Below are positions 9,746 through 9,765 of a stretch of 64,000 bases of DNA, one piece after another (the first letter of the stretch is position 1; the number at the start of each line of letters is the position of its first letter). Below the pieces are notes generated by a model. It did no database searches, was not told the DNA's origin, and worked only from the letters and a program-made list of their open reading frames with translations. The translations under genes were made by a program, and so were the position numbers. The stretch lies in the NCBI RefSeq assembly GCF_024298765.1, contig NZ_CP101210.1; one strand, written 5' to 3'. The stretch is from Escherichia coli. GTDB taxonomy: Bacteria > Pseudomonadota > Gammaproteobacteria > Enterobacterales > Enterobacteriaceae.

Positions 9746-9765
9746 TCAGCGAAACGTTTCGCTGA
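9746..9765. promoter_or_regulatory. Perfect 20-bp palindrome tcagcgaaacgtttcgctga, candidate RbsR operator
   Basis: Perfect inverted repeat seen directly in sequence about 12 bp upstream of the rbsD start; LacI-family operators are palindromes of this kind. Confidence 0.7.

Follow-up and report, generated by a model that had tools for sequence, protein, structure and literature searches.

The stretch of Escherichia coli DNA analysed here (64,000 nucleotides, referred to below as the window) carries a perfect 20-bp palindrome immediately ahead of rbsD. The preliminary description of this DNA had assigned the palindrome to the LacI-family repressor RbsR and had pointed to a possible second, weaker site at about 9829-9842. 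The locus thus raises two questions, whether the palindrome is the RbsR operator and whether it has a partner upstream.

Many E. coli chromosomes match the region with 100% identity, and it was found in 5411 of 5426 complete genomes. According to the annotation of a matching record, kup, rbsD, rbsA, rbsC, rbsB, rbsK and rbsR follow one another in this order on the minus strand, with mdtD located past rbsR on the opposite strand. The genes and the boundary that frame the control region are the following.

3866-4858, minus strand: rbsR, the LacI/GalR-family ribose repressor and last gene of the operon (NCBIfam RbsR equivalog, 697 bits, cutoff 531)
9315-9734, minus strand: rbsD, D-ribose pyranase, first gene of rbsDACBKR (NCBIfam, 221.9 bits, cutoff 93)
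9866-9896, minus strand: terminator-like hairpin with a 12-bp stem and a T-run, just past the kup stop codon

The rbsR product of the window (330 aa) matched the protein chains of PDB entries 9NY7/9NY8 with E=6.5e-221, and the cognate repressor is encoded within the same operon as its presumed operator. The hairpin at 9866-9896 looks like the terminator of kup, and it bounds the rbs control region on the upstream side, leaving about 100 bp upstream of the palindrome. A weak, sub-threshold match to the Rfam family ctRNA_p42d over the same positions (17.3 bits, E=0.89) is almost certainly just this hairpin.

The palindrome and the ribosome-binding site that follows it lie at these positions.

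9746-9765, no strand assigned: proximal RbsR operator (rbsO), TCAGCGAAACGTTTCGCTGA, assigned by identity to the crystallised rbsO and by conservation
9741-9744, minus strand: Shine-Dalgarno sequence GGAG of rbsD, assigned from the sequence, 6 nt before the ATG

Positions 9746-9765 read identically to their own reverse complement, so that the perfect 20-bp palindrome announced in the preliminary description is indeed present, without any spacer. Its dyad centre falls at 9755|9756, within a central C|G step, and both this step and the even length agree with the form of LacI/GalR-family operators (about 14-20 bp); the inner 16 bp are AGCGAAACGTTTCGCT at 9748-9763. Between the palindrome and the rbsD ATG at 9734 there are 11 nt (9735-9745), in agreement with the placement 12 bp upstream of the start codon given previously, where the minus strand of rbsD was left unstated. 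These 11 nt include the GGAG, which begins 2 nt past the end of the palindrome, and TGGAG was kept ahead of rbsD across genera in the promoter alignment. In a mismatch scan of the 64 kb, TCAGCGAAACGTTTCGCTGA matched only itself even when up to three mismatches were allowed (0.01 expected), and it was the longest perfect palindrome of the window, the runners-up being of 14 bp. Nevertheless, palindromes of at least 20 bp arose in 6% of first-order Markov simulations of a 64-kb window, and therefore the length of the palindrome is by itself merely suggestive. What decides about its function is position and conservation. With regard to position, it is located downstream of the kup terminator and of a conserved -10-like hexamer, and directly upstream of rbsD.

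Conservation was analysed by a phylogenetic footprint with one genome per species, comprising 80 rbsD loci from 80 Enterobacteriaceae species (5 Escherichia and 75 non-Escherichia). The RbsD homologues listed were all at least 82% identical to the query, and those named among them belonged to the Enterobacteriaceae. A 12-bp core, CGAAACGTTTCG, was perfect in all 80 species at 20-28 nt before the ATG, and the 16-bp core AGCGAAACGTTTCGCT was intact in 79 of them. The full 20-bp symmetry was found only in the five Escherichia loci, whereas the other species typically had TCAG...CTAG. Since conservation of the outer 2 bp on each side does not extend beyond Escherichia, the functional unit probably measures 16 bp instead of 20, with the two outer symmetric pairs probably being a lineage-specific extra. 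The mean column conservation along the control region was as follows.

9748-9763, proximal 16-bp core: 0.999
9766-9770, gap between the -10 hexamer and the operator: 0.32
9777-9815, gap between the CRP-like site and the -10 hexamer: 0.74
9846-9872, stretch upstream of the distal box: 0.46

When matrices were used to scan the whole window, the palindrome scored 28.7-34.3 bits, compared to matrix maxima of 31.0-36.3 bits, and nothing else approached these values. The search for additional half-sites that had been suggested earlier thus yielded no further RbsR site in the 64 kb, either by mismatch or by matrix scans.

The identity of the palindrome is settled by comparison with a structurally characterised operator. 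A 2025 crystallography preprint describes an rbsO duplex annealed from 5'-GTGGGTCAGCGAAACGTTTCGCTGATGGAG-3' and solved bound to RbsR (PDB 9NY7/9NY8), in which the hinge helices lie in the minor groove and the DNA is bent by 45 degrees; rbsO has no extra central base, unlike lacO1, and the preprint treats RbsR as a dimer and cites Mauzy and Hermodson 1992 for this repressor. The crystallised 30-mer matched K-12 MG1655 at 30 of 30 positions and the window at 29 of 30, with 20 of 20 in the palindrome, so the palindrome and its 3' flank through the GGAG are identical to the crystallised rbsO. In their 1992 paper, Mauzy and Hermodson reportedly observed that a perfectly symmetric site located at the transcription start was protected from DNase I and that ribose reduced the binding. 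In Serratia, purified RbsR shifts a probe from upstream of rbsD, and ribose abolishes this binding. Therefore, the documented RbsR operator lies at 9746-9765 and not elsewhere upstream of rbsD. With the rbsR gene in the same operon, the earlier assignment to RbsR is borne out, and we regard it as nearly certain that 9746-9765 is rbsO, the RbsR operator of the E. coli ribose operon. This site was already known, so the assignment is the correct re-identification of a structurally characterised operator. Compared to K-12 rbsO, the palindrome, the 3' flank through GGAG, the gene order and the repressor are the same, and the difference is one flanking SNP.

To place the operator within its promoter, the conserved blocks of the promoter alignment can be read in gene orientation as a distal box GCGAAACGTTTCGA, four variable bases, GATCACA, GATGGTTTT, TAaACT or TAcACT, a few variable bases, the operator, TGGAG and the ATG. 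Three of these blocks correspond to the following features of the window.

9771-9776, minus strand: putative -10 hexamer TAAACT (TAcACT in many genera), a conserved T-A-x-A-C-T block
9815-9836, minus strand: CRP-like site, aaaTGTGAtcaaccTCGAAacg in plus-strand reading, with TGTGA at 9818-9822 and its centre at 9825|9826
9830-9841, no strand assigned: distal RbsR-like box, TAAAACGTTTCG in gene orientation, within a 20-mer frame at 9826-9845

A sigma-70 consensus scan of the kup-rbsD interval found no promoter, and the missing full consensus is as expected for an activator-dependent promoter. A literature search on the rbsD start site and 'rbsDp' gave nothing usable on the transcription start. 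If TAAACT at 9771-9776 is read as the -10 hexamer, +1 would fall at about 9764, and the predicted start (about 9762-9766) thus coincides with the upstream edge of the palindrome. From a +1 at about 9764, the operator would be centred at about +9.5, the CRP-like 22-mer at about -61.5 (a class-I position) and the distal box at about -71.5; the overlap of the operator with the start site depends, in this reckoning, on a hexamer that is conserved but imperfect. The operator begins 5 bp after this putative hexamer and stops 1 bp short of the Shine-Dalgarno sequence. The difference from K-12 MG1655 mentioned above is at 9769 (GCGGG vs. GTGGG in gene orientation), 4 bp upstream of the palindrome and between the putative -10 hexamer and the operator, and nothing functional is implied by it. 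A second difference from K-12 MG1655 is located in the loop of the kup terminator hairpin.

The CRP-like site has two mismatches to TGTGA-N6-TCACA and is not above chance by this match alone, as the consensus scan of the window gave 25 matches against 27.5 expected. The case for it comes from conservation instead of the pattern match, given that all 81 aligned promoters had GATCACA without change. By its geometry and in keeping with the literature, 9815-9836 is taken here to be a CRP site near -61.5. The rbs genes have been listed among CRP-controlled feed-forward loops, which agrees with this position. Elsewhere in the window, a perfect CRP consensus, TGTGAATCGAATCACA, is present at 59372-59387, the only match with zero mismatches. 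This is a known CRP site, located between mnmE and tnaC at the tryptophanase promoter.

The second question concerns the distal box. The sequence CGAAACGTTTT was found at 9830-9840, inside a 12-mer core CGAAACGTTTTA (9830-9841) with two mismatches to the operator core; its centre at 9835|9836 and that of the operator are 80 bp apart, with the distal box upstream, and 7 bp of the box are shared with the CRP-like 22-mer. Cores with two mismatches occurred seven times in the window against 3.6 expected, a number reached by 8 of 100 shuffles, and therefore the distal box is not above chance by its sequence alone. The comparison with other species gave a different picture. A second perfect CGAAACGTTTCG core was present at the orthologous position in all 75 non-Escherichia species (loci L007-L081), Salmonella, Citrobacter, Klebsiella and Enterobacter included, with a core-core spacing of 78 bp in 6 species, 79 bp in 46 and 80 bp in 23. 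In contrast, all six Escherichia sequences, the window included, had TAAAACGTTTCG at this place, with two substitutions at otherwise invariant positions, both in the half-site farther from the CRP site. A second operator comparable to the main one was thus found in 75 of 75 non-Escherichia species and not in this window. With matrices built from non-Escherichia sites, the distal box of the window ranked between 4th and 34th of 63,981 positions and scored 20-56 bits below the operator. An earlier ranking of the box as second-best in the window was dropped, since it came from a matrix that included the Escherichia sites.

Could the palindrome serve something other than RbsR binding? One possibility is that it acts mainly at the RNA level, with the 5' end of the mRNA, if transcription begins at the edge of the palindrome, forming a stem (9 bp with a 4-nt loop) that stabilises the message or modulates access to the Shine-Dalgarno sequence. 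The predicted hairpin (-12.2 kcal/mol, z-score of -2.1 against shuffles) and the GGAG located 2 nt after the stem speak for such a role, but 7 of 200 shuffles folded as well and no credible Rfam family was detected. Moreover, the four central bases that would make up the loop are invariant in the 80 species without compensatory changes, which fits protein-DNA recognition better than an RNA stem, and the outer stem positions vary without keeping the pairing (TC..AG in most genera). The same 12-bp core also recurs upstream of the promoter, outside this mRNA, and the protein-DNA co-crystal accounts fully for the sequence. A primary role in the mRNA is consequently improbable, though an RNA-level effect could be additional to operator function rather than an alternative to it. 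Much less probable still is a primary occupant other than RbsR from the LacI family, e.g. the paralogs PurR or CytR, which use related AAACGTTT-centred palindromes. PurR is the nearest paralog of RbsR (405.9 bits to the PurR model), and a comparative study of the LacI family finds no differences between the motifs of RbsR and PurR except at branch-specific positions. PurR operators (16-bp, ACGCAAACGTTTGCGT type) share with rbsO the fold family of their repressor, the central AAACGTTT with its CpG step and a similar length; the two repressors respond oppositely to their ligands, PurR requiring a corepressor for binding and RbsR leaving the DNA with its ligand. At the half-site, rbs has GCGAAAC and the PurR type has CGCAAAC, and half-sites of the rbs-upstream type were found in 80 of 80 species. 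Furthermore, exactly this DNA was crystallised with RbsR, and the gene for RbsR belongs to the ribose operon at whose head the site lies. Finally, the simulations described above would allow a perfect palindrome of this length as a chance feature without function. This reading is negligible and was rejected on the conservation and structural data: the palindrome sits in a promoter region of about 130 bp, its 16 bp are invariant in 79 of 80 species while neighbouring columns drift, and its sequence is that of the crystallised operator.

For the distal box the alternatives are closer. The E. coli box at 9830-9841 might still be a working auxiliary operator, with weak RbsR binding that excludes CRP or cooperates with the operator 80 bp away. 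In favour of this, it is the positional ortholog of a box that is perfect in the 75 other species, one of its half-sites is intact (TCGAAAC in plus-strand reading), it overlaps the conserved CRP-like site, and each of the matrices tried places it among the top 0.05% of window positions. Against it, the two substitutions are common to the six Escherichia sequences, the score is far below that of the main operator and the mismatch count cannot be distinguished from that of chance matches. In addition, one paper notes that the E. coli operon has a single annotated RbsR operator and that an RbsR-core chimera showed no dependence on operator spacing. RbsR, handled as a dimer, would also appear from its length to be without the C-terminal tetramerisation segment of LacI. 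We therefore consider a working auxiliary operator in E. coli unlikely. The box is the decayed Escherichia ortholog of a full RbsR-type box that overlaps the CRP site in other Enterobacteriaceae, and in view of its two substitutions and poor score it most likely persists in E. coli as a relic or at best as a weak auxiliary site. The second site proposed in the preliminary description is thus upheld as the ortholog of a perfect box, while the E. coli copy itself is degenerate; this remnant may keep a weak function. Where the distal box is intact, RbsR bound to it would plausibly compete with CRP. Bridging between the distal box and the main operator is possible but unsupported; the spacing of 78-80 bp is also fixed by the promoter geometry and does not constitute independent evidence for it.

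For the main operator, the following mechanism is proposed. An RbsR dimer, the product of the last gene of the operon, binds rbsO with each helix-turn-helix reading one AGCGAAAC half-site, and the hinge helices enter the minor groove where the central CpG lies, bending the DNA. With the operator lying over the predicted transcription start, RbsR on the DNA should keep RNA polymerase from initiation or escape; such a steric block follows from the start position deduced above. Binding of D-ribose in the sugar domain of RbsR would lower its affinity for the operator and derepress rbsDACBKR, and catabolite control would be exerted from the CRP-like site about 70 bp upstream.

The arrangement of the control region can be compared with that of lac, in which O1 is centred at +11, the CAP site at -61.5 and the auxiliary operator O3 at -82. 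The non-Escherichia enterics have a lac-like layout, in which the main operator spans the start, the CRP site is class-I-like and another operator follows further upstream, although the rbs boxes are 78-80 bp apart compared to 92 bp in lac, and the rbs distal box overlaps the CRP site whereas that of lac abuts it. E. coli rbs differs further from lac in its degenerate distal box and in a repressor handled as a dimer. Another relevant case is CytR, a LacI-family repressor that acts at CRP sites by cooperative binding between two CRP dimers. As in CytR/CRP anti-activation, a LacI-family box is interleaved at rbs with a CRP site upstream of a CRP-dependent promoter; unlike with CytR, the 7-bp overlap at rbs suggests that competition would be the outcome.

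A few more distant rbsD loci were taken from 50%-identity RbsD representatives. L086 is enteric and showed the same two boxes. L083 (about 2400-2430) and L085 (about 525-560), with RbsD about 50% identical, carried two overlapping RbsR/PurR-like boxes about 12-13 bp apart, e.g. ATCGAAACGTTTGCGTAATCGTTTCGAT, and L087 had no box upstream of rbsD. The layout of L083 and L085 resembles a 13-bp tandem class (PMC4052901) and is unlike the enterobacterial pair 80 bp apart. Among the few distant loci compared, the 80-bp arrangement was not found outside close Enterobacteriaceae-type loci.

Some other sequences of the window deserve mention. Inside rbsD, an RbsR-like 12-mer, CGAAACGTTGCT, lies at 9481-9492 (codons 81-85, minus strand), with 269 bp between it and the operator centre upstream, and 60 of 80 species share it without change. 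Synonymous-codon conservation in rbsD is highest in the 5-codon window that contains it (0.965 vs. a gene mean of 0.78), other 5-codon windows being nearly as high (0.96 and 0.95), and the 12-mer is a weak lead to an auxiliary site or to some other constraint. On the plus strand at 9421-9459, antisense to rbsD codons 92-105 approximately, GTGGTGTAACGAATTT...ATTTCCCTGGTGT resembles the small RNA DsrA, to which the rbsD mRNA would be complementary there; a DsrA pairing site has been published for rbsD, and it is presumably the one seen here. Further along, asnA, asnC and mioC are located at 14938-17073, so that oriC should lie just past mioC in the window.

As rbsO has already been footprinted, crystallised and used in synthetic biology, the value of its identification here is that of a correct annotation. 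The distal box leads to a more general proposal, which we advance tentatively and rate at somewhat less than an even chance: the ancestral control of rbsDACBKR in Enterobacteriaceae would have comprised a pair of full RbsR operators with a spacing of 78-80 bp, of which the distal one overlaps the upstream half of the CRP site, and in Escherichia the distal operator would have decayed through the two substitutions in its CRP-distal half-site while the proximal one became a perfect 20-mer. Double sites seem to have been predicted already, since the supplementary table of the LacI-family comparative study (RegPrecise) gives for the enterobacterial RbsR regulog 12 genomes with 11 regulons and 17 sites; multiple sites are noted there for about 20% of regulated operons. 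A literature search for an experimental test of double RbsR sites found none.

If the proposal is true, RbsR would have a second mode of repression, by exclusion of CRP and/or by cooperative bridging, and the decay in Escherichia would account for the single operator of the E. coli literature. E. coli appears, then, to be the exception in the family, without the second RbsR box that the other genera have kept perfectly. Because this second box overlaps the CRP site, the integration of ribose and cAMP signals at this promoter may be different, and tighter, in the non-Escherichia genera than would be expected from the E. coli paradigm.
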